From positions 47,988,001 to 48,052,000 of the forward strand of contig OZ076413.1 of NCBI GenBank assembly GCA_964187785.1: a DNA stretch of 64,000 nt, written 5' to 3'. Each line of letters opens with the position of its first letter. Within the stretch, counting starts at the first letter, position 1. This DNA comes from Amphiscolops sp. MND2022 (lineage: Eukaryota). A program made the translations under genes and the position numbers. The notes below the pieces were generated by a model. It had not been told where the DNA came from and made no database searches. It worked only from the letters and a program-made list of their open reading frames with translations. Shown here in pieces: positions 31,101 through 62,875 of this stretch.

Positions 31101-31361
31101 ACAGAGCGTTTAAGCAAGGAGAACTCTCCTTTGGAGTTAAATCTTACCGGTGACGCGCTGGATTATCCAACAACACTCCGAAACTCTGGAACATTCTCAA
31201 AAACTCCAGAACATTCTAGAGGTCAGATGAATTGAAATATCGATTGTCAAATTGCAGGAAAATGACCTTGTTTCAAGTTAAAGATTTTGCATTGATGTGT
31301 ACTCGCAATAACAGAGCGTTTAAGCAAAGAGAACTCTCCTTTGGTGTTAAATCTTACCGGT

Positions 31362-31716: not shown

Positions 31717-31733
31717 TGGTGAGAGGAGTCTCC
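31717..31733 (+). promoter_or_regulatory. Primer-binding-site-like sequence
   Basis: TGGTGAGAGGAGTCTCC directly follows the LTR CA end. TGG is complementary to tRNA CCA. The cognate tRNA is not identified. Confidence 0.7.
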
Positions 31734-31929
31734 TTTCCTGTTCACTCAGCTTCCTTGAATAACCGAAAAACACTAAATTTCTGAGCGAAACATATTTCTA
31801 GCTAGCAAAAAAGCTATGTTCACTTCCTAAACCTAAATACTCCTATCAAAAAATCATCTAAAACTCTGCAGAAAATCTACACTCTACATTGTTTCTTGAA
31901 AATCATATTTCTTCTAATAAAATTCAAAC

Positions 31930-39126: not shown

Positions 39127-39600
39127 TCTGGCTCTGGAAAATTGAGCAATGGTTCGCAATGAAAGCGAGTTCTAAACCTCTCGCCTCCCTGGATGGCTTG
39201 GCACAAGAAGCTGCCTCCTCGCCCATTGCTTTCTAGGTACGTACTTGTAACGGATCCAGCCGCCCATATTCCAATACTGCCAGTATACAACGAGGTCAGT
39301 CTGTAGTACCCAGGCCGTTGCTAAGATCTGAAATCATTCTCTCGTTTTCTTATAGCCCATCATTTTCCTAGTGTAATTATTGATAATACCAGGCAAATAC
39401 TTTACCGCTGCTTCGAAAATGCTCGCTGTCACTTTTGCGCACTCCTGCTCCAGAAAATCGTTAGGAGCAATTCCAAGACACGTACGACAGTACTCTTTGA
39501 TTTCGGCACTTTGCATTGCCTTAGTAGCTGCCACACGTAGCCCTTTGCACTTCCGACTGGGTGCACTGTTCTTACGTTTTATAAATACAGGTTCTTCATG
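39127..39600 (-). pseudogene. Possible OTU-like cysteine protease (deubiquitinase) remnant
   Basis: Across frameshifts: CIYKT (Cys at 39587-39589), LRVAATKAM, ILATAWVLQTDLVVY...GGWIRY and HCEPLL (His at 39159-39161), followed by a GTAAGT donor at 39126. The order resembles the OTU Cys, middle and His motifs. Recognised by eye only. Confidence 0.4.
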
Positions 39601-42600
39601 CCTGTCCCTCCTTTTTTGGCAACCTTGTCCAGGCTATGAAAGTCGGTGATCTGGTACTATACCAGTTGCCAATAATAAAACGAGCCGTCAACATCAAATT
39701 TTGCATTTGGCTCACACTTTCTGCCGATGCTGCTTTGGAACTCCGTGAACCTATCAGTAAGGATACTGCACATCTCTCCACTAAAACAAACTCAGGATGC
39801 CGCATTTTTATATAAACTTTGTCGTGCGGTCATCAACTTCGTGGACCCAACATTTACATCCGATCAGATCTTCAATCTTGTTCTCGGGTACCCTCAATCA
39901 AAATTCTTGTGGATCTTCCCTCTCCACAATGCACTAATTGTTCTACCTTCCATAGAAATCCTCAGCCAATCTCGCATTTATGCGCTCTCTGAAAAAGGAC
40001 CTGAAGTATATACCTCAAACCTCTCTCATAGACCGTGAAGCTCTACAGAAGATTGCACAAGCTATCGTCATGCAAATGACAGCCTTGAAAAACCGGTTCG
40101 GACGCGAACTTAGTCATGTAACTTCTTTCACTTCTACAATCATAATGGGCATTGCAAGTTTCATAATATCAATGTTATTACATTTGTTTTTCATGTACAT
40201 TTTCCATCGTTGTATAATTCTACATGAATTCATACCAATCAAACATACATTACCGTGCCAAAAGTGGGTAATTTGAATTTTCGCAGTGGAATTCGATTCG
40301 ATGAAAGCGTGCAGCGTAATCCACTGACAAATGCTGTTACGTTGCAGTCGATTCCACTTTTTTGGCATTTTCTCCGCAGTGAATTTCGCTGCAATGCATT
40401 GGATTCCACTATCAAATACCTTGAACATTCGGATCTTGTAGTGGATTCCACTTCCGACGACATTTTCACCGTCGCCCAGCCGACTCCAGGTATAGCATCG
40501 ACTATTACCTTTTCTCCTCGTCGACCACCTCCAATGCATTCTACCCCTCTTTCTCGTCATACTTCATCTTCTTACCTTCCAAACACTTCTTGTTTGCCAC
40601 AAAGTCTAGGACAGACCCCGACTTTAATCCAAGCTAGCTCAACCTCTGACCACTCTGAAGGTATACCCATCATTTTTTATAGCCCATCGTTTTCCTAGTG
40701 TAATTATTGATAATACCAGGCAAATACTTCACCGCCGCTTCGAAAATGCTCGCTGTCACTTTTGCGCACTCCTGCTCCAGGAAATCGTTAGGAGCAATTC
40801 CAAGACACGTACGACAGTACTCTTTGATTTCGGAACTTTGCATTGCCTTAGTAGCTGCCACACGTAGCCCTTTGCACTTCCGACTCGGTGCACTGTTCTT
40901 ACGTTTTATAAATACAGGTTCTGCATGCCTGTCCCTCCTTTTTTGGCAACCTTGTCCATGCTATGAAAGTCGGTGATCTGGTACTATACCAGTTGCCAAT
41001 AATAGAACGAGCCGTCAACATCAAATTTTGCATTTGGCTCACACTTTCTGCCGATGCTGCTTTGGAACTCCGTGAACCTATCAGTAAGGATACTGCACAT
41101 CTCTCCACTAAAACAAACTCAGGATGCCGCATTTTTATATAAACTTTGTCGTGCGGTCATCAACTTCGTGGACCCAACATTTACATCCGATCAGATCTTC
41201 AATCTTGTTCTCGGGTACCCTCAATCAAAATTCTTGTGGATCTTCCCTCTCCACAATGCACTAATTGTTCTACCTTCCATAGAAATCCTCAGCCAATCTC
41301 GCATTTATGCGCTCTCTGAAAAAGGACCTGAAGTATATACCTCAAACCTCTCTCATAGACCGTGAAGCTCTACAGAAGATTGCACAAGCTATCGTCATGC
41401 AAATGACAGCCTTGAAAAACCGGTTCAGACGCGAACTTAGTCATGTAACTTCTTTCACTTCTACGATCATAATGGGCATTGCAAGTTTCATAATATCAAT
41501 GTTATTACATTTGTTATTCATGTACAGTTTCCATCGTTGTATAATTCTACATGAATTCATACCAATCAAACATACATTACCGTGCCAAAAGTGGGTAATT
41601 TGAATTTTTGCAGTGGAATTCGATTCGATGAAAGCGTGCAGCGTAATCCACTGACAAAAGCTATTACGTTGCAGTCGATTCCACTTTTTTGGCATTTTCT
41701 CCGCATTTATTTTCGCTGCAATGCATTGGATTCCACTATCAAATACCTTGAACATTCGGATTTTGTAGTGGGTTCCACTAAACACTGCCGTGGATTCCAC
41801 TGGACGCTGCAGTGGACTCCACCGATGGCCGCAGTGGAATCCACTATTGGCTGTAAAGGACTCCACTGCAGTGTTTTAGTCGAATTCACTGAATTCTTCC
41901 ATTACCAACCTACAAAAATTAAAAACCACCGAAAAGAAGTGGAGTTCATGTACTTCAGTGCCCAAAAAGTCTATCTTCACGTGTTCAGTTTTGAGAATGA
42001 GAAAGCTTTTCAGAATCAGCAAGTGTCACAAAAAAAGGATTCAGAACTTCTCCATTTGGTTCAAAATTATTCCCAGAGAGTTTTGTCAATCAATTTTTTC
42101 TGATACTCGCACTGTTTTACCGCTTTAGTTTGACTGTGATGTTTTTTCATCCTTTGATTGAATCATAGTAGGCATCAAAAATTCACATACAGCTTCTGCT
42201 AGTTACTTAGTTATACACACATACCTAGTTACTTTAGGTATAACTAGTTTTCATTTTTCATTTACCTCATGGTGGATACCAAAATTTGGTTCCAGAAAAC
42301 TCACGTCAATCATACTTCCAAGCTGACTGCAACGGAGACCTTATCAATCTACCACCATTCTACAAATTCAAGTTTTGTCATCTAATAAATTTTAAAGTAG
42401 CATCATATCACTGTTAGTCAAATTGCATGCTCAATATGATGCTACTTTAGAATTTATTACAAATAGTGGATATCAAATTTCACACACAGCTCTCCCGTGT
42501 ATCTAGGGTATAACTAGGTTTCATTTTTCAATGAACTCGTGGGGGATACCAAACTTTTAAATTGAATTACAAGCCGAATGAAAATCAACTTATTGCTCTC

Positions 42601-44573
42601 AATCAATCCCTCATCTAGATTCATGAAGAATATTCACGTGAAGAAACGTTGCAAGCGTTCACTAAAGTTGTATCTAGGGTATAACTGGCACATTACCGTG
42701 CCAAAAGTGGGTAATTTGAATTTTTGCAGTGGAATTCGATTCGATGAAAGCGTGCAGCGTAATCCACTGACAAATGCTGTTACGTTGCAGTCGATTCCAC
42801 TTTTTTGGCATTTTCTCCGCAGTGAATTTCGCTGCAATGCATTGGATTCCACTATCAAATACCTTGAACATTCGGATCTTGTAGTGGATTCCACTTCCGA
42901 CGACATTTTCACCGTCGTCCAGCCGACTCCAGGTATAGCATCGACTATTACTTTTTCTCCTCGTCGACCACCTCCAATGCATTCTACCCCTCTTTCTCGC
43001 CATACTTCATCTTCTTACCTTCCAAACACTTCTTGTTTGCCACAAAGTCTAGGACAGACCCCGACTTTAATCCAAGCTAGCTCGACCTCTGACCACTCTG
43101 AAGGTATACCAATATACATACCCGTTCATGAGAGTTCATCTTCTTCGTTTTCGGGATTTTCGGAAACCCTCATAAATCGAGCTCGCGCCATAACCTCACC
43201 ACTTCGAAAAGCCTCTGTTTTGGACAAAACACCCCTTTTTGACTTCTATAATACTCCTACATGTTCATGTCACCTAATTCTCAACCTTATTATTTTCGCC
43301 CACCGCCATCGCGCATTCCTGCCCTACTACCCCCACACCTATAGCCCCCCTTTTGGCTCAGAACCCTTCTGATCCCTTCCAGTTTCGATTGGTCCCTTTA
43401 CCTCGTCCACCAGCCTCCTGTGTCAGATCTCACAGATCCAACTGCCTTTGTGCGCGACTTTAATTCTACCTCTGGAGTCTCTCGTAATATTCATACTCCT
43501 ACGACCCCATGAGTCAATACGATACCTGCTACCGCTTCTTCTTATCGTCGTGACTCTAGTTTACGACCGAAACCTTGCCGCACATTCTTCTTTAACCCCA
43601 AACCATGGAAAGAAGCCTCTTATTTTTCCTTCAGTTTTTTTGCCTTTTTTCAATTTTTTTGGTTGATTATTGCTATTTTTTTTACATTAGCTCTTCCAAG
43701 TGTACCCTTTTACGCCCTCAGCTCTCTAGCCTTCTGGTTTTGCTGTTGCTCCTAATACACCCACCTAAACTCCTATATTGCTCCTCTTTCATGGATTTTT
43801 TCCGCAAAAACTTTGGATTTTTTTAAACTGGTTGTTTTTTGACCGTTTTTGGACTAAATTTGTATCATAGTCCTCTCTTTGAACGTGAATGATACAGCGA
43901 GGTTACTGTGAGACTCCCCATTTCACCTAAGTGTAGTAATCAGGCCTCCACGTCCCATAGCACACACTTTTACCTAGCCATTTTTCAACGAAAATAGGTC
44001 ATTTTTTGACTCCTGAAAAATACGACCTTCAAAGACCCATAAAAAACAGAATTTTCGAAATTTTGACCCCAGAAAATCGGTGAACACAGTTTTTTACCAC
44101 AAACTTTTGATTTAGGCTAGAAAAAACTTGAAAAATCGAAAAAAAAAAATTGAAAAGTTTTTCTGAGTGACTTTTTGGCCTTCCTATCACATATTGTTTT
44201 TTTGTCAATTTTATGTCTTTTTCTCTAATTTATGCGCCCGTAATTGCCACAAAATTTCTTTACTACTTCTCTACGATATTCCTACGCATAAATACACTCA
44301 ATGCCTAAGACTTTTATAGGTCTTTGACCCAAAAACATGTAAAATGTTTGCTATTTTTCGACTCTTTCAGATTTTTTCCAAATAAACGTGTCTTTTCTAA
44401 CCTCTACGCTTGCGTTGAGCTACTTCCACAGGCTTCCTGCTGCACTCACGCTTTTACCCACAACAGGCCCTCGCACCTTTACTGATGTCTGTTCTCTGAT
44501 GAAAACATGAATGTTTTCCCAAAATACCTTAGGATCGCTTACTAACTCTCTATGTAATATCGTTATTACTTAC

Positions 44574-45050
44574 TCTGGCTCTGGAAAATTGAGCAATGGT
44601 TCGCAATGAAAGCGAGTTCTAAACCTCTCGCCTCCCTGGATGGCTTGGCACAAGAAGCTGCCTCCTCGCCCATTGCTTTCTAGGTACGTACTTGTAGCGG
44701 ATCCAGCCGCCGATATTCCAATACTGCCAGTATACAACGAGGTCAGTCTGTAGTACCCAGGCCGTTGCTAAGATCTGAAATCATTCTCTCGTTTTCTTAT
44801 AGCCCATCATTTTCCTAGTGTAATTATTGATAATACCAGGCAAATACTTTATTAACGCCGCTTCGAAAATGCTCGCTGTCACTTTTGCGCACTCCTGCTC
44901 CAGGAAATCGTTAGGAGCAATTCCAAGACACGTACGACAGTACTCTTTGATTTCGGCACTTTGCATTGCCTTAGTAGCTGCCACACGTAGCCCTTTGCAC
45001 TTCCGACTGGGTGCACTGTTCTTACGTTTTATAAATACAGGTTCTTCATG
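44574..45050 (-). pseudogene. Duplicate of the possible OTU-like remnant
   Basis: Same motifs in the duplicated A/B block (Cys at 45037-45039; donor at 44573). Confidence 0.4.
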
Positions 45051-46962
45051 CCTGTCCCTCCTTTTTTGGCAACCTTGTCCAGGCTATGAAAGTCGGTGAT
45101 CTGGTACTATACCAGTTGCCAATAATAGAACGAGCCGTCAACATCAAATTTGGCATTTGGCTCACACTTTCTGCCGATGCTGCTTTGGAACTCCGTGAAC
45201 CTATCAGTAAGGATACTGCACATCTCTCCACTAAAACAAACTCAGGATGCCGCATTTTTATATAAACTTTGTCGTGCGGTCATCAACTTCGTGGACCCAA
45301 CATTTACATCCGATCAGATCTTCAATCTTGTTTTCGGGTACCCTCAATCAAAATTCTTGTGGATCTTCCCTCTCCACAATGCACTAATTGTTCTCCCTTC
45401 CAGAGAAATCCTCAGCCAATCTCGCATTTATGCGCTCTCTGAAAAAGGACCTGAAGTATATACCTCAAACCTCTCTCATAGACCGTGAAGCTCTACAGAA
45501 GATTGCACAAGCTATCGTCATGCAAATGACAGCCTTGAAAAACCGGTTCACACGCGAACTTAGTCATGTAACTTCTTTCACTTCTACGATCATAATGGGC
45601 ACTGCAAGTTTCATAATATCAATGTTATTACATTTGTTATTCATGTACAGTTTCCATCGTTGTATAATTCTACATGAATTCATACCAATCAAACATACAT
45701 TACCGTGCCAAAAATGGGTAATTTGAATTTTTGCAGTGGAATTCGATTCGATGAAAGGGTGCAGCGTAATCCACTGACAAATGCTGTTACGTTGCAGTCG
45801 ATTCCACTTTTTGGTATTTTCTCCGCAGTGAATTTCGCTGCAATGCATTGGATTCCACTATCAAATACCTTGAACATTCGGATCTTGTAGTGGATTCCAC
45901 TAAACACTGCCGTGGATTCCACTGGACGCTGCAGTGGACTCCACCGATGGCCGCAGTGGAATCCACTATTGGCTGTAAAGGACTCCACTGCAGTGTTTTA
46001 GTCGAATTCACTGAATTCTTCCATTACCAACCTACAAAAATTAACAACCACCGAAAAGAAGTGGAGTTCATGTACTTCAGTGCCCAAAAAGTCTATTTTC
46101 ACGTGTTCAGTTTTGAGAATGAGAAAACTTTTCAGAATCAGCAAGTGTCACAAAAAAAGGATTCAGAACTTCTCCATTTGGTTCAAACTTATTCCCAGAG
46201 AGTTTTGTCAACCAATTTTTTCTGATACTCGCACTGTTTTACCGCTTTAGTTTGACTGTGATGTTTTTTCATCCTTTGATTGAATCATAGTAGGCATCAA
46301 AAATTCACATACAGCTTCTGCTAGTTACTTAGTTATACACACATACCTAGTTACTTTAGGTATAACTAGTTTTCATTTTTCATTTACCTCATGGTGGATA
46401 CAAAAATTTGGTTCCAGAAAACTCACGTCAATCATACTTCCAAGCTGACTGCAACGGAGACCTTATCAATTCTACCACCATTCTATAAATTCAAACTTTG
46501 TCATCTAATAAATTTTAAAGTAGCATCATATCACTGTTAGTCAAATTGCATGCTCAATATGATGCTACTTTAGAATTTATTACGAATAGTGGATATCAAA
46601 TTTCACAGACAGCTCTCGCGTGTATCTAGGGTATAACTAGGTTTCATTTTTCAATGAACTCGTGGGGGATACCAAACCTTTAAATTGAATTACAAGCCGA
46701 ATGAAAATCAACTTATTGCTCTCAATCAATCCCTCATCTAGATTCATGAAGAAGATTCACGTGAAGAAAACGTTGCAAGCGTTCACTAAAGTTGTTATTC
46801 ATTGTGCTTTGTTTCGGTATGACGAAAAAAAGCATGTGTATCTGTAGCAATCAGTGTTTAAATACAAAATTGCAAGTGAAATTGAAACGAAAGTAGTGAA
46901 AAATTGAATACACAACAACGAGAAGATGAGGGTTTTGAAAACGCAATTTTCTGACGATTCCA

Positions 46963-47957
46963 TCAGTCAAATATCGACTGGGATTCTTCACGTTCCAGAA
47001 AAAGTTGATTGGCAATGGGGTCATTGTATTCAAAACGGAACTGCTGAAATGGTAGAATATCACGTGTAGCTCGGAACACTACAATCTTATTGCCATTTTG
47101 AAACAACTCTATCACTGTGGGCTTCATGTTGGCGCCGTTTGAAATCAACTGCGAGTGGTTCGCAAGGCGTCCAGGGCAGCGGATATTTGGGCGAAGGAGG
47201 CAAATCTCTTTGGAGGCATCAATGATTTCTCTAGAGGCGCCACTTTTAACCTCCAGATCGAACTCCGGCTCCACACCTTCTTTCTCGAGGACCTGGCTCG
47301 ATGACACGTTCAAATACCCCTCGCCATGGTAATCTATTAAAATGGTGTCCTTTGAAAATGTCTGTGTGGCAATCACACATCTTCCAAATTTCGACATTTT
47401 AGCTAACCAGATTCCAGGCCAAAGCTGCGTCTCACATCGTTGCGACAACATAATTTGTCCTTCATACGGCACATTATGAGCAAGTTCAGCATACCGATTT
47501 CCACTGCTCTCAGGTAACGGCGTGGATTTTCTAATTGACTGGCTGATAGAGTGAATCAATAACTGCGTTGTCACTTTTTTCACGTCCTGCTTCTTATCCT
47601 CCAGCAAACTCCACTTTTGTCGCTGGAAAAATGCCGTCACTCTTGACTCAAGACATTTAAAAGCAACTTTCCCAGAAACGTGTTCGAAGATAGCAAGGCC
47701 CTGGCTGACTGGCGAGTGTACCTTTGCTGGTCTTAGCGGGCGCGAACAGCGTTTCTCACCTCGTCTTTGTCGAAACCTTCAACATTGGAAAGAACCAATT
47801 TAATTGCATGTTTCAGCTTGGCGATTTTGAAGCAGGGGTCCTTGGAAAATGGCGTCGCGACTTTACTTTTTAAAAGTATTTTGTTCTTTTCTTTCTGCTT
47901 TTTTGCTTGAAATGAAAAGATCCACAACAGATTTAACGCGGAAGTCCGCTTCTCCAA
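46963..47957 (-). pseudogene. SET-domain lysine methyltransferase, SET8/PR-Set7(KMT5A)-like
   Basis: GRCVIATQTFSKDTILIDYHG, IIDAS, GRLANHS and VFRATRDILPFQQFRFEYND match SET motifs I-IV. The frame continues upstream through one in-frame TAA (47733-47735) into ORF 47733-47957. More fragments extend to ~48540. Confidence 0.85.
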
Positions 47958-48899
47958 TTGAATTTACAAAGAACAACTCTGTAATAAGTTGACATTTGTC
48001 GACTTTTTCGTATCAAACAATGGCTAACTTTGGAAACAAAAAATTGCCGAATTTGTGTAAAATATACTTTCCTTGCCTCAACAAGTCTTCTGGATATTTT
48101 GTGAACTGTTCGTTTCGCTGATCCATGTGTGTGTTCCACAGAGATTGAAGGCGTCGCTCAGTGACATTTCATCGTGATCCATCACGATTTGCACAACTGA
48201 ATGTACGAGACATTCCGGATGGTACTTTCAAGCATAGGTGGTACCGCACAATTGAACAGGGTTGTAATTATGCATCAAAAGAGTTCCAACTTAGCTTTTT
48301 GTACTATTCCCACGTTTTCTTTCTATGCCTTCACATGTTTAGACAACTTACTTTCGTACACGTTGTTGTCAAAGTAAGTAACTTTCGCGCATTTGGATTG
48401 GCTGTACTTAAATTATCCTCACTGCACTGGGAGTCAAATGGAAGCTTCCCAGGTGGCTCATTGAGCTGGGGTGACAAATTAGTCCGGGGACCTTATTATA
48501 CCTTTTCAAATATATTAACACTCACGAGATGAGTTTGAAAAGAAAATTGCTAGTGCTGATTTCCTTTTATTAAACGCTCGAAATGGAATGACACCTTCTT
48601 TTAGGACCATCACTGTGATAGTAGACTCTTTTTTGCGCAGTTTATGTGTTGACACCTGATACTTACTTTGCACAAAATTGAATAGTTTCTGCTCAGAGGA
48701 AGCTCACGTGTTTCTTCCGTTGAAGTCAACTTTAAACTCCACTACAATGCTTTTGCAAACTTTTAAACTATATGAAATTGTCCAAATCCTCGACCCTGAA
48801 ACCTATATTTGGGAGTCTGCAAAGATAATAGCGTTCATAAGTGATTGGTCTCTGAAAATCTGAAGGATCGACTGGAACAATAGTCTGTAGAAAATAGAA

Positions 48900-49936
48900 C
48901 TTCACCTAGAATTGCGTGCTGACCCAAATAGGTGGAACATTAGAAAAGCGCAACTTTCGCAACCAGTCATGTCAAAAAAGCGTTTTAAACCCCTGTCGTA
49001 TAACCCAAACCGATTGCAAAAAAACGAGCCCGTGTGTGGGGCATTGTTTTATTGATTCCCATGGAAAAATCAAAATAGGAACTATTTCGACGAATGACCC
49101 ATTTACCCATGAGTGTGTCGTGGGGATGGACGAAATGTTTGGAATTATACCTATTGCTGTTTGAAGAACTCAGTGGAAGACACCCATAATCACGATGAGA
49201 AAGCAGAAGACGACGAGGAAGCTGAAGAGACGAGGCAGGAACATCGGGTAGAACCAAAACAGAAAAGACCTAAAACACAAATACCGGATATAGACTTTCA
49301 ACATTGATCCCGCGATCCGATGTGGATGTCAAATTAAGCTATGTACCATGTATCGATGGAATTTGTCAAAGAGGATCCATCATTACTTTGTCTGGAATAA
49401 AATTCAAAGTGAAAGATTTGTACTACAATGCACAGAGGTTGAAACCATTTGCAATAATGGTATACATGGACGATGAAGACTGCGAACTTAGGATGACAGT
49501 AAACAATTGTTCGTTAAAGATATCGGACTATTTAAAAAACGTGGAAATCAATTTTCTCACTCTTGCTAATGATGTTGATAGAACTTTTGCAATCTTTTCT
49601 GCAAATAAGAGATGTATTGGGTTGTCGTTCAAGAAATCATCAACTGTGACAAAGATGATCCCTGCAACAGAGCTCACAAAACGTGTCTGTCGGTTCAAGT
49701 CGGACTCAAGCTAAGAAAACTTGAAATTTTCAATAGAAGTTGAAACGGGAAACTTTGGAATCTACAACAGCTTAGTTTGTATTTTGGGCCAGAACTGGGA
49801 CAGCATTCCAGATATGCTTGAAGATGAGCATGCCACCATGATCAAGACTTTGAAATTCACCGAACATCGCGACTTTATGATGTGCTCAATCAAATGCCAC
49901 ATAACTACAACTGAAGGCCACTACAAAAAAATTTAG
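48900..49936 (+). pseudogene. Decayed gene of unknown function (Cys-rich start, acidic linker, globular-looking C-terminal part)
   Basis: Consecutive same-strand ORFs 48916-49164, 49113-49307, 49304-49714 and 49721-49936, then AATAAA at 50145-50150. No family recognised. Confidence 0.5.
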
Positions 49937-50349
49937 GCAAAATTTTCAACGTGCGCTCATTGAATACTTTGTTGAACAACAGGGGTAGCATTTTTGGTAT
50001 CCACTCTGAGTAAGTGTGTGATTACTTCTCCAAAAAATTGTCTTTTTTGTTACGTTAAATAACCTGAAAGATATTTTTGTTGGTATTGCACTGATAAAGT
50101 TTTTTTTCTTAACTCGATTGTTACAGCAATATTGTCCTTGTTACAATAAATGATGTCGAAAAACTTTTTTCACTTGTGACTACATTCGGAGAAATTCTTT
50201 CCAGTAGATAATTTCAAAATATTATTTAGAACCGTTCCATATGCGTATTATTGATTTGTTACTTTGATATTTGCACTTTCCAAATTTTCAGTACAAACGT
50301 TTCATTAAACCTAATTGCATCTAGTCAAAAACTGTAAGTGGATTTGACC

Positions 50350-51545
50350 AATATGTACAAATACATTGACAGTAGATTTCACAAACAAACCTTTTAATTT
50401 TTGCAAATCATTTCAAAATGGTTACATTCAGTGAAATATTGGTTCTAAATACATTTAGGTTTCTATTGCAGTGGATTTCGCTATTCGGGAAAGTATTCGT
50501 CAACCTGCGAAAAGTGATATGTGGAATCGACTAACGTATACCAATACATTGACAGTGGATTCCACAAACAAATGCTAAAACATTCATTTGGAAACCAATT
50601 TAAAAGAGGTACATTCAGTAATTTGTTAGTTCTTAATAGAAATAAATTTCTAATGCAGTGGATTCCTCTATTCGGGAAAGTATTCTTCAACCTGCGAAAA
50701 GTGATATGTGGAACCGACTAACATATGGTATACCAATACATTGACAGTGGATTTCACGAACAAGTGCTTAAACATTTATTTGCAAACCAATTTAAAAGAA
50801 GTACCTTCAGTAAATTATTAGTTTTTAATGGAAATAAATTTCTATTGCTGTGGATTCCGCTATTCGGGAAAGTACACTTCAACGTGCGAAAATTGATATG
50901 TGGATTCGACTAACGTATACCAATACATTGACAGTGGATTCCACAAACAAATGCTGAAACATTTGCAAACCAATATAAAAGGTACATTCAGTAAATTATT
51001 AGTTCTTAATAGAATTAAATTTCTAGTGCAGTTTATTCCACTATTCTGGAAAGTATTCTTCATCCTGCGAAAAGTGATATGTGGAATCGACTAACGTATA
51101 GTATACCAATACATTGACAGTGGATTCCACAAACAAATGCTTAAACAGTTATTTGCAAACCAATTTAAAAGAAGTACATTCAGTAAATTATTAGTTTTTA
51201 ATAGAAATAAATTTCTTTTGCTGTGGATTCCGCTATTCGGGAAAGTATTCTTCAACGTGCGAAAATTGATATGTGGATTCGACTAACGTAGACCAATACA
51301 TTGACAGTGGATTCCACAAACAAATGCTGAAACATTTGCAATTCAATATAAAAGGTACATTCAGTAACTTATTAGTTCTTAATAGAAATAAATTTCTAGT
51401 GCTGTGGATTCCACTATTCTGGAAAGTATTCTTCATCCTGCGAAAAGCGAAACGTGGAATCGATAAACGTATTACAATACATTAAAACTGGGTTCCACAA
51501 ACACTTGCTCGAACATTGGCGAACCAATTCAAAAGGACTAAGTTC
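50350..51545 (+). repeat. ~187-bp tandem array, about six units, rich in GTGGAWTCCAC
   Basis: CAATACATTGACAGTGG-like starts at ~50359, 50542, 50734, 50921, 51107, 51294 and 51475. Confidence 0.95.
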
Positions 51546-51806
51546 TAAACTAAATTCTATTCAATTTAAATTGTAATAAACAATAAATTATAGATTGAAA
51601 GCTGGATACACCTGGTAACAAAAGGCATTGACAATGATGAATAGAGCGAATTCCAAGAAAAAAGTGCAAAATTACAATTTTATTTGAAGAAAATACGTTG
51701 AAATTGTCAAACAATTCGAAACCAGAACCATTAATTTCCGTAGCTCACAATCCAGTCCGTGGAAGAGATTAGTTCTTTCATCCACATTATCATTTCCCAT
51801 TCATAA

Positions 51807-54154
51807 TTAACAAACTTTAATTACCATTTTGAGGGCGTCGAGCTCACAGCTGATCTGCTCTTTCAGAAGGGTAAGTTGTCGGCTGGAGAATATGGGGCTC
51901 CATGATCCTCTCAGGGAATTGAGTTTCCTCTGGAGTTGTCGTATTTTAAACTGCAACACAGCATAAATTCTGACAACTCTAGGAAAAACCTCTTCATTGT
52001 GTACTTCCTGCTGACTGGCGTTGAGATGGCTGTCCACACTCAGAGGGAAATGGGTGACAGCAAGGAAGTTGGAGGCAAAAGCAAGGGAGTCCCCCTTTGT
52101 TGCAACTATATGCGGCCAGCGTGCAGGCAAAACGAGGATGTCGCCGGCTTCCATCACAAGTTTGTGGACGCCACCTGTCAGAACCTTCAGGTTCACGAAG
52201 AAAGTTAGACTAAATAAAAACGAAAATACATATAAACGAATTATCTGGTTCAATGATTTTGAATCATGTGCATGATTGATAATGTGCTCTTCGCAAAAAG
52301 ATGACTTTGAGATGAGCATGTTTTCAGTACATGATCTGAGTAAATTTATCTCTTTGTGGGGATATTGCTCCACTCTTCAAAGAGCTGCAAATTGACACTT
52401 GTCAGGTCCACCAGGCAGAAGATCTTCTGCCCACGGGCGACAGTATAAAAGGCAGTCGTGCTGGAGAAGTCGACATGCCACGGCGTGTCACACTTGTCGT
52501 TTGAGACAAGCAAATAATTAGATGTAGCCCCAGTGAAGTGTCCTGCTACGTCGATACACTCATCTGCTAGGTGGTCAGCCGCACAGTACCGGACAAAGTG
52601 TGGTACTTGGAAAACTAAACCAAAACGATGACTTCAGCACACGGTTTCAGAACAAATACTCCTTACAGTGGTCGCCGTTTTCAACATCCATTTAGTTGCT
52701 AAAATTTTGAAAAATAGAAGTGTGCATCCATCATGGGCCACTTTCCCCTGACGTAGTTTGAACATGTATTGAACACTGACTTTTAGCTCTGTAAAGACAC
52801 CGATTTCAAAGACTAGTTTTTTCCATATGAGCCTTTCCAAGGTATGATAAAAAACTTACATTCTGTTCAAATGCAATGTCAATGATATTGACAGAGAATG
52901 TCTTCGTAGCCGCTGCAGAGGACCCGGCTCGCTGCTCGTCCAGGTATTCGCTCTTTGCTAAAGACCTGACCTAAAATTCAACAACATTTAATTCCATCAT
53001 CCTCCTTTGAAACTACTTTACCAATATTTAGATAACTTAAAATGAAATCCGCTGCCAACGATGTCTTAATGGATACTAAATCTCAATATGTTTTGGTTCA
53101 AGGAAAACAACAATTTTTATCACTAATGGTAAAACGCTATACATGAATGAAGTTTGTGAAATTCGAAAAGTACAAAAAATGGCGGTATAATTTCACCTGT
53201 TGGTCATGTGGTAGTTGTGATGACTTTGCAGCAAGCTTCGCTGCAGGATTAGCAATGTGTTGCAGCAAGAAGTAGACTTGATGGAGGAAGTCCTCAGCGG
53301 GCAAAACTGGGAGCTTCAATCCTCGCGAGTTTATAGCCCCGTTCTTCCACAGTATTGGCTGGCCACGAGAGAGTGCTTTTATGACCATGCCTTTCATCTT
53401 CTTGCCCATTCTTCCACCTGCAGCAGTTCCATGGCTCCTCTGAAAGTGGCATGTCATCTAGGTGCTTTACGAAGACACTTGTCCCTTCGTACGCCCGTCG
53501 ACTTGGCTAGCTCGTCATTGCCATGTTGCTTTCTTTGTGGAGGGGAAAGCGTGTCAGGTGTCTCTGTAGGGAGTCGCTCCGGGCAAATTCCTCACCACAG
53601 GATGTGCAAGGATGTTTCTTGCTGGGGTCGGCTGTTCCTAAGCATTTTATGATTAAACTTTAAACTAAAAACATTGTTCGCACATTTTGACTATGATCGT
53701 ATTAGTTGTTTATTGATGGCCCAAAACAGGAAGCTGTTGATCAAACAACGCGTGACTAAATATTGAAAAAGTGTGAACAAAGTTTGTACCTAAATCCTAA
53801 ACTGTCGCGCTAAGAATAAATATAAATTTGAAGCTTTCTGATTTGTATTCACGTCTTTGTGTTATAAGATTTTCACTAATTATGAAAAGAAAGTGGCGGG
53901 GAAAAAAGAAAGAGCCCCAAATAGTTGACATAGTTGATCTACTTACTATATTTTCGTTTATTTTTGGCTATATCTGTCGTGCAGTACCTCGCATTCTCGA
54001 TGTGCCGCCTGAGGGTTACAGGGGTGGCAAAGACCATCTTGCAACGAGGACAGGCTTTGTTTTGCGGCTGCTTCGTACCGCAGGTTTTTTGGTGCCTCTC
54101 AAAATTCGCGCGTCGGTTTGACTTGTACGAACAATTGGAGCAGCTGTATTCAGT
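51807..54154 (-). pseudogene. Multi-exon gene: three C2H2/C2HC zinc fingers fused to a KDM2/KDM7-type JmjC histone demethylase
   Basis: Exons 54154-53947 (ZF1 CSNC..RRANFERHQKTC; ZF2 CPRC..TLRRHIENARYC), 53637-53197 (ZF3 CTSCGEEFARSDSLQRHLTRFPLH; GTSVFVKHL; PILWKN..GLKLP), 52970-52860 (VNIIDIAF), 52614-52350 (YLLVS..TPWHVDFSSTTAFYTVARGQKIFCLV..NLQLFEEWS) and 52209-51807 (GDILVLPARWPHIV..DSLAFASNFL). Splice phases match at three junctions. The 52860/52614 junction is out of phase and may need a decayed mini-exon at ~52698-52667. Lesions: TAG at 53507-53509, a frameshift, and an AT donor at 52349. AATAAA (minus) at 51679-51684. The first exon was not found. Confidence 0.9.
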
Positions 54155-55759
54155 CTGTAGAAACAAAAACAACACTATTGTTTAACCTCGAAGTGTCGTG
54201 CATGTACACCCCAAAATTCCAAACTGCTAAAAGATATTACAACCTGCCATTTCAAATAAAGACATGTTTTCCGATCAGAAAAAGAAGGAAACGAACATGC
54301 ACAAAAACAGAATATGCCAATATTACAAAACCCCAAATGAATTCAGAACCTCGCGCCTCCTTTTCAGTTGGTCTTTGGCATGAGAACCATAAAGTATTGG
54401 ATTGCTCCCTCTTAAAACGAGATATAAAGACCGAACTCGGGTCTTTTCTGTTTTTCCCTCATCCTATTCCTTAAAATTACCCCCAATATTTCATTTGTCA
54501 TGATAAGAATCGTAGTATATGACTCTTTTCCTAATGATTAACTTCTTAAAGATGAACCCCATCAACATTTCGATTGTAAGGAAAAGAATCGTATTATAAG
54601 ACTCATTTCCTAACGATTCACTTCCTAATGATTTTCGAGGGAAGGGAGTCAACTTGCTGGGGAGATAACAGAAAAGACCTACGAATTCTATAGCATTATT
54701 TCACTCTCCTATTTCTCTACAAAGGGTGAACAGTTTTTCACTCAGGCCTGTTCAAAGAAGATGACAGTTCAAACTCAGATTAGTTTTTACTACTCAGGGA
54801 AACCAAAAGAAACCAAAATTTTCCTTTGGTAATTCAGGAGGACTTCTTACTCACAGTGTGTACCAATTTTTTTTCTCACTCAGAATTTTTCTACTACCCA
54901 CCGTGGATATAAAAAGTTTCTATACAACTGCAGGACAAAAATTTACTCACGTTGTGTGCCAAAACCGAGTACAATACTTTACTCACAGTGTGTACCAAAA
55001 CCAAAACGGTGTGTATTAAAACTGAGTTTTTTCTACTCACGGTGGGAACTCAAATTTTTCCAACTGAATGAAATATTGTTATTTCGTATCTCAAATTGTA
55101 GAGGTAAAACACTGTGAAAAAGAAACTGACCATTATGAAAGCAGCAGGCAACGTATAAAGAATCTAGAACTGAAAGAATAATCAGACAAAGTTCAGACAA
55201 AAGCTTACAGAAGGCTTTTTGAACTAAACAAATCTAGCAAGAGGTTGAATTTAAAGATTGAACGACCAAGAATCCATTTCCTGAACTAGAAGAACATTTC
55301 CTACATCCACTTCGGCAGTCAATCAAAATCGAATTAGCATTCTCAGTTCCGTAAACTATTGTAACTGTTTTGATTTTTGACGCTACAATGGCACACAAGT
55401 TTACTAATGGACACTTTCTTCAGATTCATTCCAATTGTGCTGAGTGAACGAATAGGGTTGAACAAATGAATGGTAAACAAAATGAAACATGTTGAAGCGA
55501 AATAAAAAACGAAGAGAGCACACTCCTTCTGGAACACAAAACGATTCAAATTTTAACCTACCTAATTTTTTGAAAATGCACTTTAGATGATTGAATGTTG
55601 CATAAGTCTTGCAAAACCCTATTTTATCGGACAACTTCTGTGAAGTCACAATTTTTAGGACAAACGTTATCAAAGTTTTCTAATATTGGAAATTATGTTA
55701 ATTTTGATCAATAACTTTGTTCATGATTTCTTTCTATTCAAGGCTATTTAGACCTAATA

Positions 55760-56470
55760 ATTCACTAAATGTACGCCTTTTGAATTACTTCTCAAATGCT
55801 TAAGCACTTGTTTGCGGAATCCACTGTCAATGTATTGGTATACGTTAGTCGCTTCCACGTTTCGCTTTTCGCAGGATGAAGAATACATTCCAGGATAGTG
55901 GAATCCTTTGCAATAGAAATTTAAGTCTATTTAGAACTAAGAATTTACTGAAAGTACCCTTTTTGAATTGGTTTGCAAATGTTTCAGCATTTGTTTGTGG
56001 AATCGACTGTGAATGTATTGGTATACGTTAGTTGATTCCACATATCACTTTTCGCATTGTGAAGAATACTTTCCAGATCAGTGTAATCCACTGCAATATA
56101 AATTTATATCTATTTAGAACTAAGAATTCACTGAATGTACGTCTTTTGAATTAGTTTGCAAGTATATAAACGTTTGTTTGTGGAATCCACTGCCAATGTA
56201 TTCGCATGATAGCCCATTCCACTTACTGTTTTTCGCAGGATAAAGAATACTAGCTGAAATAGTGAAATCCACTGCAAGACTACTCAGGACTAATATTTCA
56301 CCGAATGTACCTTTTTTGTATTACATCGCTAATGTTTAGGCATTTGATTGTGGAATCCACTGTCAATGTACTTTTATATGTTGTTCAATTCCACTAACCG
56401 CTTTTAGCAGGTTGAAGAATGCTTTCCAAAACAGTGAAATTCACTGCAATAAAGTTCAAGACTATTCAGG
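55760..56470 (-). repeat. Second array of the ~187-bp unit, about four units, inverted relative to 50350-51545
   Basis: GGAATCCACTGTCAATGTATTGGTATACGTTAG is the reverse complement of the unit in the first array. Confidence 0.92.
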
Positions 56471-56816
56471 ATTTACAATTTTTACAACATAATTGGTGTT
56501 TTTTATATCCTGTGCCTCTCCCACTTGGTAGAACACTAGGTGATTTCAGCACGCTCCGGACTTCATTTTTCAAACCGTTTTATATACCACCCCAAATGCG
56601 AAAATGACCGCCAAAGATTAAACAGTTGCTATAAAGGTCTAAGAACTGCCTCCTTTTTGAGAAATACTTTTTTGGTCATATATAAAAATGTTTCTTCTAA
56701 GTTTCTGAGAAAAAAATTGTTCAAAAGCTGAATTAGTACTACAAGCAAAGATAAAAAGATATGTCTTCAAAATCATTTATTGTAACAAGCACTTGAGAGT
56801 AAAAGACGAGTAAAAA

Positions 56817-59719
56817 TCAGAGGTAAAGACGATCATCTGCTGGAGTTCTGTTATGTTTCACAAAGCCGTTTCGGTTTCTTTTCAATGCCACAATGGCTGA
56901 TGTATTCGCTATTGATTTGTTATCATCTATTTGATTCATCAAGAGTGGTCGCATGTCATTAAGTTTCATCGGATGGATCAAGAGTTCAGGCCTCATAATA
57001 TGTTTTTCAGGGTCTAGAATGACGTTAGATTCCACCATTTTGAGTACGTATTCAACAGTGATGAACAGGAAACCGCCTGATGCAAATCTTTTACAGGCCA
57101 AAGCAGCTGGAGACAACTTCTATTTTGCTGAACACTTTTCATTTTCTCTGCTTTCGGAAAAATGTCTATGGAGCTTCAGTTTTGTTCTCAAGGCTTCCAA
57201 TTGATGTTTATCGCCGGTCGAGTTAATAAGGTCCTCTTCATCGGTCGAGTTAGTAAGGTCCTCTTCATCTTTGCCAATAACGTAAAAATTCAAGATATTT
57301 GAATGCGATTTCATTAGGTTCTCTGCATTTTATTTCTCATAAACGGCACCTACTATTTCGCAAAATTCTATCTTTGAAGAAATCCTGTGTGAGCCCACAC
57401 TTGAACCTACCCACAATTGTAGATTTTGATTTTGGCACCGTCGAGAGTCTCTTCAGTCGTGAGTGTTTTTCTTTCATGTTCAATGACATTGGATATTTGT
57501 TTCGGAAATTGTTGAAGAAATATCCAGGAACCGGCAAAACGAAAAAGCAGTATCCAGAAAAAATGGACCTTGATGGTAAATGGAGCCACCGTTTCTCATG
57601 GTTCGGGATTGAAATTTTTTTTCGCATTGTGGTTCGATTTTTCCAAGCCTTTGCAGAGGTGATTCCTTGGCTTCTCAATGTACACGCTTTCAACTAGTTG
57701 GGCTATCAATGGAAGCTTGAGCTTGTATGGTGACAGCCTCTTCCGCCCGAAGAGGAGCAAATTGATTTGGAAGTATGTTTCAGCCCATCGTTTGTAAGTG
57801 TCAACATCAAACGTCCTCTGAATTTTCAACAGAATTGCACACTGGTTTAAACATTGTCGTAGAAGCTCACAAGCATCATTATTGACATATATCGTTCTTC
57901 GTTTCCTGGATTTATGGGGTCCCGTTTGTAAGATAAATATGGATGTAAAGACTTCAATACTTTTGCAGCCCACAAGTTGTATCTATCATCACTTCCAAGA
58001 AGTGTCTCAGTCGTCCAAACTCCGTCATAAAGGTTCGTGATTGTTCCATGTTGAGAACTTCTAAGTTCTTCAGTTTCATCTATAACTGCGAGACATTCGA
58101 CCCCGCTAATGACAGTGGTCCTACTGTTCCTGGGGTTTTACCTACTTTTTGTGGATTATATTGAACTGAAAAGACAGTCTTTTAGCTTCTCGGCTGGTCA
58201 GATTTTTCTCAAAGCGCTGTATGCTTAAAACTTCCCAGGGATGTTTGTCGTTAATTACCTTCTGAGCCATTCTTCTAATATCATTCTCAGTGCAATGCGT
58301 TGTCATGTGTGTACCGTTTGGGCAGACTGTTCTGACATCGAATATGCTTGCTAATGCGTCTTCCATCGACATCTGAGCAGCGGGTGGGGAAGAAATTTTC
58401 ATCGCATACATATATCGGAAGTTGTGAGGGATGAGAACTTGAACGTTCAGTTGAAATTCCAAGAACCAAACGCGTCAAGAACGGGCTGTCACCACTGTAT
58501 GTAATTTCAATGCCATTGGCTTGTATTTACTTGTAGTTCTTTTGACTGGCGGTACAGCCATCCAGACTCTTGGTTACCCAGGATAGACAGGCCAAAATTT
58601 TGTTCCATTACATATCGTCCATCTTTGCCACGACAGGATACAAAACAGAATACAGCTTTCGATGATTGGCTGCTAACTGCGATGTTCAAAATTCTGAGTG
58701 CTAGACGCGTTACCTCAACCCCCATTTCGCAACCGTCTTCCCAAATGTCAATTTATGGCTTTCAAGATTTGTTGTTTTGCAGTAAAACTAATGACGCAGA
58801 CGTCACTGTTTTCAGTAAATCGACTCGAAATCCAGAATAAGTGCGCTCAGGCTCGCAAATTGTAACAAACAATTTCATTATGAGTCTAGTGGCTCTTTTG
58901 ATGTGACGAATTGACGGTACTAGGCTACCACCTCCTAAACAAACCGAAACTAGCGTTTGTCGAATTGCTTTGAGGATATCTTCTATGTTGACAGTTTTCA
59001 TTTTGATTGAAAGTTCGTACCTAAAGCACTCGGAGGAGCCCCTGTCCATCAAAAGACCAGTGAACAAAAATCGAATGTGATTACCGCTTGCGCTCCTTTT
59101 TCGCCGCGCGATACGTTTCTGATGCTGTTCTTTGAGAATTCTGGCTGATACCTGAATAGATATACCATGCATTCTAGCAAATTTAAGGACTTTGGTCCAA
59201 AAACAGTTCTTATTAGTTCTGTTCCACATTTTGAGTTGCAATTGCGTAATATTCTTATCTGATTGTTGCTGGTCTTGTTGAAAATCAACTTCTGAAGTGT
59301 TCTGTAGCACTGCCTCTTCTTGGAGTGTTACTTCAAGGGATGTTTCTTCAACTGTCTCATGCTGAGAAGAAAATTTGTGAAAGTACCGACATCGGGCTAA
59401 AATCTGGTGTTAAATATTTTGCAACAAAGCTTCTTCACTTCTCCTCGTTCCAAGGGAAGTCTTTATAGCCCCGCAGAATTAAAAGTTCCATTATTTTCGA
59501 TGCAACTAAAACAGATCCCTGGAGCTGTCCTTCAATTGGTACTTTCTGAATAGGATCGTTTGTGTTCAGAGTGGTCCCTACGACCATTTCAGCAACGATT
59601 GAAGTAAGTTTCCTTTGACGATTTTGTAACGTGTTTCCTGTTATAAAGTCTAAAAATTTAGAATCTATGAATTCTTTCCCATCATCTAGTGATAGATTGA
59701 ACTTTTCGAATTCTGACAT
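56817..59719 (-). pseudogene. RAG1/Transib-like DDE transposase-core gene, decayed
   Basis: Ordered motifs: IDIWEDG (D at 58735-58737); RILN...GKDGRY; TYSGDSPFL..LG (D at 58488-58490); CPNGTHM; LSPYKL; LCKGLEKSNHNAKKNF (E at 57641-57643). AATAAA (minus) at 56776-56781. No TIRs or RAG2-like partner found. Confidence 0.6.
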
Positions 59720-60908
59720 TTCTAAACTTGTAGACTATGAAAGTGAGCGTGTCAATGGTGTATCAATTCGTCAATAATGATGACGCCGAAAGACTATTAA
59801 TATCCTTTTCTTTGTGTTTCAGTTTCCCTCCTTTTGCGTCTTCTGATACGCCTCAATTTTAGTTTTAACTTCAAATAAAATTAATCTTGCAACATGTTTC
59901 TCAGGTATTATTGCTTCGCACGCTGTTTAAATCTTTCTTCAAGAACTGTTTGAAAACAGTTGATTGCACGTTGAACTAAAACTACAATGTCATGGGTGCG
60001 TTCACTAGTAGGTGATAAAGTTAGGTGTGATTTTTCCCAAAAAATCATATGGAAGGATTTTTCAGTGATTTTTTGAGTTAGTGTTTTGTCTCCACTGTGA
60101 GTCAGTCGACATTGTTTGGAGGATTTTGTTGTTTTTCGACCGTGAGTTGACCGTGAATTGGAACACAGTTCAAGCACTACGAAGTTTGGCAAAAATTGAT
60201 GAAGAAAATTTTTTCAAATAGAGAACCTACACATTATCATGACAAAAAGAAAGACGTAAACAAAACTTTTAACAAAACTTTTATAAGAAGGAGTAGACGC
60301 GAGGAACGCATCAAGTGTAAGTTGTAACCATTGATAAATAGTGATTGTAAAAATCCCACTATTCGCCAATTGCTTCACAGAATTTGTATTCTGCGACCTG
60401 AAACAAAAAAATTTAAAAAAATCTGGAACTTTTTCCTTTCCCCTACACTTTTCAAGATGTTGTTTTTCCTATTACTGTAGACTTCGGATAATCGAATATT
60501 GGCTAATCCAAAATTTTGGGTAAACGCATAAAAATCCCCGGCTGTATCGAACATACTAGCATGTTTTAGTTTAATCGAATATTTCGCTCCATCGAGAAGT
60601 TTTCGCCGGTCCCGCCAGGATTCGATTAGCCGACCGTAATTAACATAACAAAAACACTTGAATACACACAAGAATTTTTCAGTTTTAAATGTATTTCCAG
60701 AGAAACACTTTATAACTGAGATACAAACGTCGTTCACCCTGTTTTCCGTATTCTTTGAAAAGTGTGGGGGACAAAGCCAATAGGCCAAAAGTCTTCCAAT
60801 AACGAGATCCTTCACGTGTTAGTTTGAGAGATATATTAAACCGAACCACCATGAAAAATTGGAAAGAAGAAATTTTAGAAATTTATCAATGTTTCATTGA
60901 TGTGTTGT

Positions 60909-61103
60909 TTCGCTGAAACTTGCAATGGATTCCACTTCAGCTTACAGTGGATTCCACTTTGGCTTACAGTCAATTCCACTCGTTTTGCATTGAATTCCAC
61001 AAGTTGGAAAGTGGAATCGACTGTACGCCAAAGTGGAATTGGCTGCAAGCCAAAGTGGAATCAACTGTAAGCTGAAACGGAATCCACTGCAAGTTTCAGC
61101 GAA
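60909..61103. repeat. 195-bp foldback with 72-bp arms built from 22-bp AGTGGATTCCACT-containing subunits
   Basis: TTCGCTGAAACTTGCAATGGATTCCACTTCAGCTTACAGTGG... pairs with ...CAACTGTAAGCTGAAACGGAATCCACTGCAAGTTTCAGCGAA, with about six mismatches. Confidence 0.9.
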
Positions 61104-61315
61104 TTTCGCTGAAAGTTGGGAAATAAGCTGACGCGATTGGTTCAATTCAGTTGGCAGTGAAAGCAGTGGATTTCTGTGCACGCATTGTTGTACATTATCT
61201 AGAAATGTTAGTGGAATCCAAAAAAGGCTACAGCGGAATCCACTGAAAATCAGTGAAATACATGTTTTGGCACTGTAATGTAGCTATGAAGATGATGATA
61301 ATCGCAGACAAAAGG

Positions 61316-61940
61316 TTAAAATGCAACCTGTTTGTCTGTTCCTGAACAGCTTCTACAGGCAGTACGAAAGACCCCAACTTCCTTTGACATGGTCGCTGTC
61401 GTTTGGCAGAACATAAAGAAATTGATCAATCCTATGCAACCATCCCCTCTATTTTTTTCAGGCGTTCTCTGATAGCGCAATTTTGCCCGTCTTTTTGAAC
61501 AACCGAGTGTTGTGTGTTTTTCTTTCATGTATTCTTTAACTGTACTTTTCACGTTGCCATAGTTGTTTCTTTGAACAGCTCCACTCCAACTGTCTCTGAC
61601 TGCCCCACAGTCAGTTTCTAACATCAACACAATTTTCTCATCATGTGCTCTAAAAACATCATGTTGAGTGAATCTTTCTTTCAGTCTTTTCCGCAGTTCT
61701 TTTCATGATGTATACACTTATGTGCTACCATTTTTTCTCACCAATTTTTTTTATATCTCTTGCTGACCCTATGAAAATTTGTAACCACTTTTTCACCCAT
61801 ATTAGGTCACTTCTTCTCCCGTTTATATCTTCACTGTTTACTCCAAGAATTTGACTCTTCCGTGCTTCTGAGTCATATCTTTGAATTCGACTTTCGACCC
61901 CTGTTTGTGCCCGCTCCTTGGTACACATCCGCTCATTCAA
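61316..61940 (-). pseudogene. Decayed antisense ORFs, weakly similar to the Gypsy pol linker and integrase zinc-binding region
   Basis: SDLIWVKKWLQ, KEYMKEKHTTLG and INFFMFCQT loosely recall the DxxLxxVxxWL, HxxxGH and CxxC segments. Weak. Confidence 0.25.
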
Positions 61941-62499
61941 TATTTACTCTTTAAATGATAATTGTACACTTTTCGCTTTGGTGTTGTTGTACACTTGTCT
62001 TGCTGTTTACTCCAAACACCTTTATACTGGCTTAATCAATAAACAGTCCTTTGCTCAGTAGTCATTGATTAGGCACTGATAGTCTTCTCTGCCTCTTTTC
62101 TCGCATGCACGCCCTTTTGTCCGACAAATGATATAGTTTGCATTTGGCACACGTTGCCACGTGCTCTCTCGCTTACAGTTTTTTTTTAGCAAACACTGCT
62201 ACTTTTTCCGCGCTTTGTCCAGTCAATTTTGATTCACTCTTTACTGTTTTGCTGCCCCCTTTTAAGTCCACAGCCACACCTTTTCACAACAATGCATAAC
62301 TTGCGTTCAACATGCGCTTCATCTGCTTTTCTTCTTTTAGAGGCCCCCCCTTATGTGATATGTATGTTTTCATTTTTTCTTTTTTTGGGTATTTGTGTCG
62401 GCTTTCTTAGTATACCGGGTTGATTGCGTTCTTCTGTTTCATTCAACTTCACCATCTCTGCCCTGAAATAGATCACAACCGGGCAGTTCCCCTTTTCTT

Positions 62500-62511
62500 G
62501 AAAGTGGCGAG
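62500..62511 (+). promoter_or_regulatory. Polypurine-tract-like sequence
   Basis: GAAAGTGGCGAG directly precedes the 3' LTR TG. Confidence 0.65.
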
Positions 62512-62875
62512 TGTCATGATACAATCATGATAATCTACAAAATTTCGAACACCAAACAAATTCCGCCATTGAAAGTTAAGTTTCAATCAGAGGCCGACAA
62601 CTCCGAGATGGACAACGATACGATGAAGTGGTTAAACGGAAGACCAGAAGACTAATTTTTCACTTGAAGAAACAGTTGAGTTAAAAGTTGTAAATTGTGT
62701 TTCTCCATTGTAAACTGTCTACTCTTCAATAACAATCATAAAACAGGTTTCTTCAACCAAAGTTTATTCACTCTGAGTGAAGGAAAACTACCCAAGCGAA
62801 ATCTGAAGAACTAAATCAGATATGAAAAGCTCTTTATAAAAATCATAGTCACGTGCTCGGACCAACCACATGACA
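62512..62875 (+). repeat. 3' LTR (364 bp)
   Basis: TGTCATGA...ACATGACA. About 85% identical to the 5' LTR by hand alignment (~53 mismatches plus two indels). Confidence 0.95.

Follow-up and report, generated by a model that had tools for sequence, protein, structure and literature searches.

A gene that joins three zinc fingers to a JmjC domain is carried in the genome of Amphiscolops sp. MND2022 as the cargo of a cut-and-paste DNA transposon with terminal inverted repeats (TIRs); it moves as DNA and is under purifying selection. The copy described here lies in a stretch of 64,000 nucleotides (contig OZ076413.1 of GenBank assembly GCA_964187785.1, positions 47,988,001 to 48,052,000 of the forward strand), referred to below as the window. 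Its carrier belongs to what we call family A and its features are collected in Table 1.

A single-copy host gene was the case that the preliminary description of this DNA had set against its own account, and this is not what we found: at least 32 other near-full-length copies of the finger-JmjC gene, 85-87% alike, were recovered among the 40 that were scored from 2502 candidates. Flanks were examined for 25 of these 32, giving 26 copies when that of the window is counted, and in 19/26 both ends of the element fell within the sequence taken, with lengths of 15.2-17.5 kb. The termini of family A begin CATTACA. Eighteen of the 19 two-ended copies are bounded by a 2-bp target duplication (16/17 independent sites, three copies sharing flanks), in which the dinucleotide varies from site to site. 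The exact left terminus occurs 108 times genome-wide, against 0 for its reversed control. Family A has the TIRs, target duplication, dispersed copies and DDE transposase that define a cut-and-paste transposon.

Table 1. Features of the finger-JmjC gene, its carrier and the surrounding element (positions in the window)
Feature	Position	Strand	Remarks
Decayed, older Gypsy-type LTR element	31362..62875	+	LTRs 31362-31716 and 62512-62875, 83% alike
TA target duplication	45696-45697 and 61281-61282		Flanks the family A copy of the window
Whole family A transposon copy	45698..61280	-	15,583 bp; limits are the end of the sequence common to 5 other copies
Right terminal inverted repeat	45698..45719	+	22 nt in young copies
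SET gene	46966..48489	-	SETD8/KMT5A-like SET domain 46966-47514, frame open; N-terminal part unassigned and broken
Third cargo gene	48774..49774	+	Conserved in families A, B and C, 27% identity; broken in the window copy
Tandem array, ~192-bp units	50356..51535		Contains GTGGAWTCSAC
Finger-JmjC exon 5	51807..52209	-	Distal His 52112-52110, Asn 52070-52068, C-terminal helical part, stop
Finger-JmjC exon 4	52350..52614	-	JmjC core: Tyr, Leu, Thr, His-x-Asp, Phe, Tyr, Lys
Finger-JmjC exon 3	52860..52970	-	N-x-I-D motif, the KDM2A N142/I144 region
Finger-JmjC exon 2	53197..53637	-	Finger 3 and stretch preceding the JmjC core; TAG and 2-nt loss in the window copy
Finger 3	53608-53537	-	C-x2-C-x12-H-x6-H (C2H2)
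Finger-JmjC exon 1 (of those found)	53947..54154	-	Fingers 1 and 2
Finger 2	54052-53981	-	C-x2-C-x12-H-x6-C (C2HC variant)
Finger 1	54142-54080	-	C-x2-C-x12-H-x3-C (C2HC variant)
Tandem array, ~183-bp units	55736..56466	Inverted relative to the array at 50356	Contains GTGGAWTCSAC
BRCT-like tail of the transposase gene	56850..57359	-	Pfam BRCT_2 E 0.0016 in family A, 3.3e-6 in family B
DDE transposase, RAG1/Transib-like fold	57475..59767	-	tblastn with ORFs of a young copy; stops and frameshifts in the window copy
Left terminal inverted repeat	61265..61280	-	First 16 nt match, remainder diverged in the window copy

The DDE protein encoded by young family A copies has the residues D122, D202, D274xxH and E497. 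A fold model built from a 49-row alignment (pLDDT 83; 34 for the single-sequence model) matched RAG1 with Z 18.3 (rmsd 4.1, 402 aligned), Transib with Z 13.2 and the P element with Z 12.5, and Foldseek and Atlas (0.93) concurred. Sequence searches of PDB and Pfam named no transposase family for it (in Pfam, for none of the 49 rows). Members of the CMCT clade share C(2)C and H(3-4)H motifs, according to the accessible part of the source (PMC12730594); in the stretch from the second D to the E, we found the former in 2/42 and the latter in 0/36 transposase rows. The carrier resembles that clade in the CA..TG termini of families A, B and C, in a 2-bp duplication that falls inside the clade's 2-5 bp range and in a DDE triad with DxxH, but it differs in having a BRCT tail and neither zinc motif. 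Transib makes a 5-bp target duplication, as given in the available text of PMC4411706, rather than the 2 bp seen in 18/19 carrier copies, and ESTA is TA-specific, which the target dinucleotides of the carrier are not. The carrier transposase fits no lineage among those that could be tested by CMCT motifs or Transib duplication.

The finger-JmjC gene itself occupies the minus strand from 51807 to 54154 as five exons separated by four introns, with AG acceptors and GT donors except for one mutated donor. The splice sites are retained in 24-26/26 aligned copies, and the exons join into a single frame of 476 codons. The preliminary description, which had proposed introns and a fusion of three zinc fingers with a JmjC domain, was right on each count: all three fingers are present, two of them as C2HC variants, and Pfam recognises zf-C2H2 with E 7e-9 in exon 1 and with E 5.9e-5 in the third finger. 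The fusion is also seen with no assumption about splicing, since another family of this genome, F, encodes one finger and the whole JmjC domain in a single unspliced frame of 585-621 codons at 5 of 6 loci, and families G and H likewise have finger and JmjC in one frame. A simple ATG-to-donor scan of the 1.5 kb upstream of exon 1 found no start exon. Two small AG..GT stretches within intron 3 were rejected as exons, because used separately (8+32 nt) they break the frame and used as one they contain a stop. Intron 3 also holds, at 52790-52769 on the minus strand, a stretch that in other copies resembles the terminal repeat, with at most 4 mismatches in 22/25, and that may represent either a relic or a site for binding.

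What the preliminary description overlooked is that the window copy is a pseudogene. It has a premature TAG at 53509-53507 and a loss of 2 nt near 53391, both in exon 2, together with a loss of 1 nt at 52614, on the acceptor edge of exon 4, and a GT>AT mutation of the exon 4 donor at 52349. With these four lesions it is unable to make protein. The intact copies that the same account had proposed to look for do exist: 10/25 other copies, at 8 independent loci, have a fully open five-exon frame of 472-477 codons with GT-AG sites.

Purifying selection is evident from several comparisons. Between the window copy and the 25 others, dN/dS is 0.25-0.41 (about 0.27), with 0.27 for the finger part and 0.26 for the JmjC part; against one of these (c04) p=5e-14, with 54/21/91 differences at the three codon positions. 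Changes shared among copies number 46 silent and 29 replacing, as against 71 silent and 211 replacing among private changes (p=1e-8), in a count from which the window copy and two near-duplicates were excluded. Of the shared indels that shift the frame, 1 falls in an exon and 8 fall in introns. Divergence is 0.17 in introns, 0.29 at silent sites and 0.08 at replacement sites; as replacement changes have thus accumulated about half as fast as changes in introns, dN/dS may overstate the constraint. CpG sites have no clear excess of private transitions (33/192 vs 133/917), and no pressure from DNA methylation is evident from this.

In PDB, the JmjC exons come closest to PHF8, KDM2A and KDM7 (E 4.8e-8 and E 1.1e-6; PDB 2wwu, 3kv4, 2yu1), in keeping with the KDM2/7 type claimed earlier. 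The positions quoted in the preliminary description for the ligands and cofactor residues are exact in the window copy: the metal triad consists of His 52477-52475, Asp 52471-52469 and the distal His, and the cofactor residues are Thr 52486-52484 and Lys 52426-52424. Across the aligned copies, both His, the Thr and the Lys are present in 26/26 and the Asp in 22/26. All nine residues listed for the methyl-lysine pocket of KDM2A (I144, Y199, L201, H212, D214, F215, Y222, H284 and N298, in the accessible text of PMC4197961) have equivalents in the window copy, mapped through ungapped alignments or through our own alignment. Judged by this conservation, intact copies likely encode a putative Fe(II)/2-oxoglutarate histone lysine demethylase. 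By analogy with KDM7/PHF8, its predicted substrate would be H3K9me1/2, H3K27me2 or H4K20me1. In host KDM7 enzymes, specificity is set by a PHD finger outside the JmjC domain, as described in the available part of PMC4197961. The finger-JmjC exons found contain zinc fingers only and no PHD or CXXC module, and an Asp replaces the host Ser just after the I144 equivalent in 10/10 element rows. Given these two differences and the long branch on which the element JmjC domains lie, the substrate may have changed.

That branch emerged from the phylogeny that the preliminary description had suggested. When 1.84 billion proteins were searched with a profile, the matches comprised canonical KDM2/7 proteins and a divergent set without names; 17 of the latter entered the tree, and those that were looked up carried no informative name. 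For this JmjC tree 49 rows were chosen from 161; one canonical host KDM2/7 gene was found in this genome (G000:C4). The tree, which is unrooted, has long branches and a bootstrap that is not fully settled, separated 25 canonical rows, including the host gene, from 7 element and 17 unnamed rows by a branch with 100/100 support. Grouping family A with the host KDM2/7 gene was rejected (AU p=0.002), and the element JmjC branch is about 3 changes per column from the nearest other lineage. We claim no root, because a fast tree put one outgroup row inside the mobile group. The element JmjC proteins appear to form a lineage apart from host KDM2/7, a grouping that long branches could inflate, and an old capture from a KDM2/7 ancestor would account for it better than a recent capture from this host. 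A phase-2 intron lies 7 codons after a conserved Trp in family A and 8 codons after it in the host gene, with an intron of family H near the same place; this one near-match hints at capture as DNA.

Related genes occur on other elements of the same genome, identified by a JmjC family search in which 150 of 775 candidates were scored and by a KDM7-type query for which 78 of 1869 were scored. Families B (18.9 kb) and C (19.4 kb), each examined in two copies that are 98.7-99.8% alike within the family, begin CATTACA and have 2-bp duplications; their transposase has 38% identity to that of family A. Both keep the transposase, BRCT tail, third gene, SET and JmjC in an order that differs from A. Finger-like frames lie upstream of the B and C JmjC domains and are weak (no Pfam match in one and E 0.024 in the other). 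Homologues longer than the JmjC of family B did not turn up in a weak search. The linker from finger-like frame to JmjC in family B (L122-L123) holds a long tandem array whose short units code for acidic residues and are set apart by spacers resembling introns, and family F has Gln/Pro/Gly/Glu repeats at the same linker position. Families F, G, H and I (L166-L181) pair the finger-JmjC gene with a SET domain unlike that of family A and with probable tyrosine-recombinase frames, for which a frame of family H gave a weak match (E 1.4e-4); the 10-30 kb examined around these genes gave no match to a DDE transposase or to BRCT.

Family A carries two further cargo genes. One encodes a SET domain (Pfam E 3.2e-7) whose closest relative among named human structures is SETD8/KMT5A (E 1.7e-5). 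The other matched no Pfam, NCBIfam or PDB family. Two labels that we had assigned by eye were dropped when searches gave them no backing: the third gene had been called 'Tudor-like', and the part that precedes SET 'recombinase-like'. A short word, GTGGAWTCSAC, occurs at 18 sites in the element and at 0 in 100 kb of flanks; counted by strand, the window has 40 matches where 0.06 would be expected; its sites are placed at both element ends and in the two inverted tandem arrays around the finger-JmjC gene. The most-repeated word differs in each of families A, B, C, F and H. GTGGAWTCSAC is one candidate target of the fingers, and as it clusters at both ends, binding by the transposase fits equally well.

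On balance and with moderate confidence, we favour the reading that this is a conserved cargo gene, intact copies of which encode a finger-steered histone demethylase that lifts silencing from the element's own copies, where expression, catalysis, substrate and binding are what we infer. The zinc fingers, in place of the PHD or CXXC module by which KDM2/7 enzymes of the host are targeted, would guide the protein to DNA copies of the element itself, and the JmjC enzyme would strip silencing methyl marks there and so keep copies of the family on. The presence of a methyl writer (SET) beside the eraser sits poorly with a simple 'erase silencing' account.

The foremost of the alternatives, which we consider unlikely, is that the enzyme acts in transposition, JmjC, SET and BRCT together preparing donor or target chromatin or steering repair, for example by writing and erasing H4K20me1. 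PHF8 acts on H4K20me1. The SETD8/KMT5A-like SET domain and the BRCT tail of the transposase agree with such a role, but nothing links this particular JmjC to H4K20, and related finger-JmjC genes ride, with a different SET, on elements that gave no DDE or BRCT match in the DNA examined, so that a role useful to any element is favoured.

Next comes a reading that we think improbable, in which the protein is an active dioxygenase whose substrate is no histone (it could be nucleic acid, the transposase or a silencing protein of the host), or else binds methyl-lysine marks and so sequesters them. It could draw on the long branch, on the Ser-to-Asp change at the pocket edge and on the Atlas neighbours of family F, which include JMJD4-like and other JmjC clusters; against it stand the nine retained KDM2A pocket residues and the fact that the best sequence matches are KDM2/7 histone demethylases.

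That the gene is a passive hitch-hiker, a captured fragment of a host gene with no role for the element, is very improbable. The window copy is dead, 15/25 others have no fully open frame and drift among young copies is neutral, but any gene of a transposon is expected to drift in this way in its single copies. The branches shared among copies bear purifying selection, the gene is kept in three families with 38% transposase identity, and a clade of family A with host KDM2/7 is rejected at the AU value given above. These results largely refute the hitch-hiker reading already.

The whole family A element was inserted into the 3' region of the decayed Gypsy element, with the finger-JmjC gene antisense to pol. 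The Gypsy element has a CCGGT target duplication of its own and an integrase piece at 36001-36384. The left flank of the insert has 24 matches in the genome; among the best seven non-self loci, 7/7 are related Gypsy elements that lack the insert, and 5 of these join both flanks within 10 nt. Among the other finger-JmjC copies, 24 had a flank that was compared with this Gypsy and 0/24 match it; one further copy had no recognisable end. The transposon jumped into the Gypsy element, and the antisense position is the accident of a single nested insertion. The preliminary description, which had placed the gene inside a retroelement, was therefore correct as to position and mistaken as to the carrier. 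To its model of an antisense cargo of an LTR retroelement, whose introns survived reverse transcription because of that orientation, we give almost no credence: the gene does lie between two LTRs and antisense to pol, and a different Gypsy family here carries an antisense JmjC-like frame, though an intronless one, but the carrier has its own TIRs and TA duplication, the 7/7 related Gypsy loci examined are empty and none of the 24 other copies compared lies in this Gypsy. The introns need no special explanation, since the carrier moves as DNA.

That other Gypsy family bears env and is represented by two copies that are 93-95% alike over 12 kb (G000:C7, C12; L137:3857-10000/L138, L139:3412-10000/L140). 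Its antisense frame, which is 255-299 codons long and is placed after pol and before env, or between the two, keeps the H-x-D motif and distal His (Pfam JmjC E 3.6e-7, 6.2e-7) and is a true retroelement-borne JmjC-like gene, unlike that of the window. Several features of the surroundings may be recorded here. The junction of the transposon's right end with the Gypsy 3' region is duplicated at 37441-46795, with 97-99% identity, so that additional terminal repeats remain at three places (40248, 41575 and 42691). A ~210-bp satellite array (19623-31361 and 62875-63555) is interrupted by the Gypsy insertion. An intact, intronless Hsp70-family frame of 853 codons at 15143-17704 on the minus strand (Pfam E 5e-143) is probably a host gene of Hsp110 type, the subtype being assigned by eye. 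An inverted repeat of 308 bp, 99% complementary and with no spacer, lies at 1165-1780.

A joint reading of all these observations, which we offer tentatively, is that an unclassified lineage of zinc-less transposons of RAG1 fold carries an old, mobile-only branch of KDM2/7, in which the histone reader was swapped for DNA-binding fingers, which passed between DDE and tyrosine-recombinase elements, and which would serve as a family-specific eraser of histone marks on the element's own repeats beside a SET writer. If true, it would equip elements of an animal with a kit against silencing and would be a demethylase that is programmable by nature. Little is settled on the means by which transposons of animals evade silencing through histones; the proven factors are from plants (VANC) and the proposed enzymatic ones from fungi (TET). 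The selected, intact finger-JmjC gene of young elements makes the question directly testable.

A literature search, outside which lay Repbase Reports and subscription journals, returned no report of a transposon-borne JmjC gene, and the accessible parts of PMC6431247 and PMC9406493 describe none. Within that search JmjC as cargo would be new; SET and TET as cargo are already known. The oomycete DNA transposons HarbingerS and MuDR have SET methyltransferase cargo, as cited in the available text of PMC12730594; they are alike in this cargo and belong to other superfamilies, with no JmjC mentioned in that text. The same source describes TET/JBP genes in several unrelated lineages of fungal DNA transposons, Fe/2-oxoglutarate erasers for which anti-silencing was proposed, and JmjC has 0 occurrences in its main text. 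Those enzymes act on methylated DNA in fungi, whereas the present gene has a histone-type JmjC and its own finger module and resides in an animal.

Among host enzymes, KDM7/PHF8 and KDM2A share with the element gene the JmjC core, metal triad, cofactor Thr and Lys and methyl-lysine pocket; the element gene differs in its N-terminal C2HC/C2H2 fingers, in having no PHD or CXXC module and in being multicopy and transposon-borne. REF6 is a JmjC demethylase aimed by zinc fingers, according to the accessible part of PMC7105484. As the preliminary description had recognised, REF6/ELF6 belong to a different clade: they are host genes of the KDM4 subfamily with JmjN and C-terminal fingers, whereas the gene described here is mobile and has a KDM2/7-type core and N-terminal fingers. 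VANC of the plant VANDAL elements is element-encoded, targets the tandem repeats of its own element and lowers DNA methylation there, with binding shown (PMC5735166, in the part available). The finger-JmjC protein is like it in being an element-encoded factor associated with family-specific repeats, to which binding by the fingers is here only predicted.
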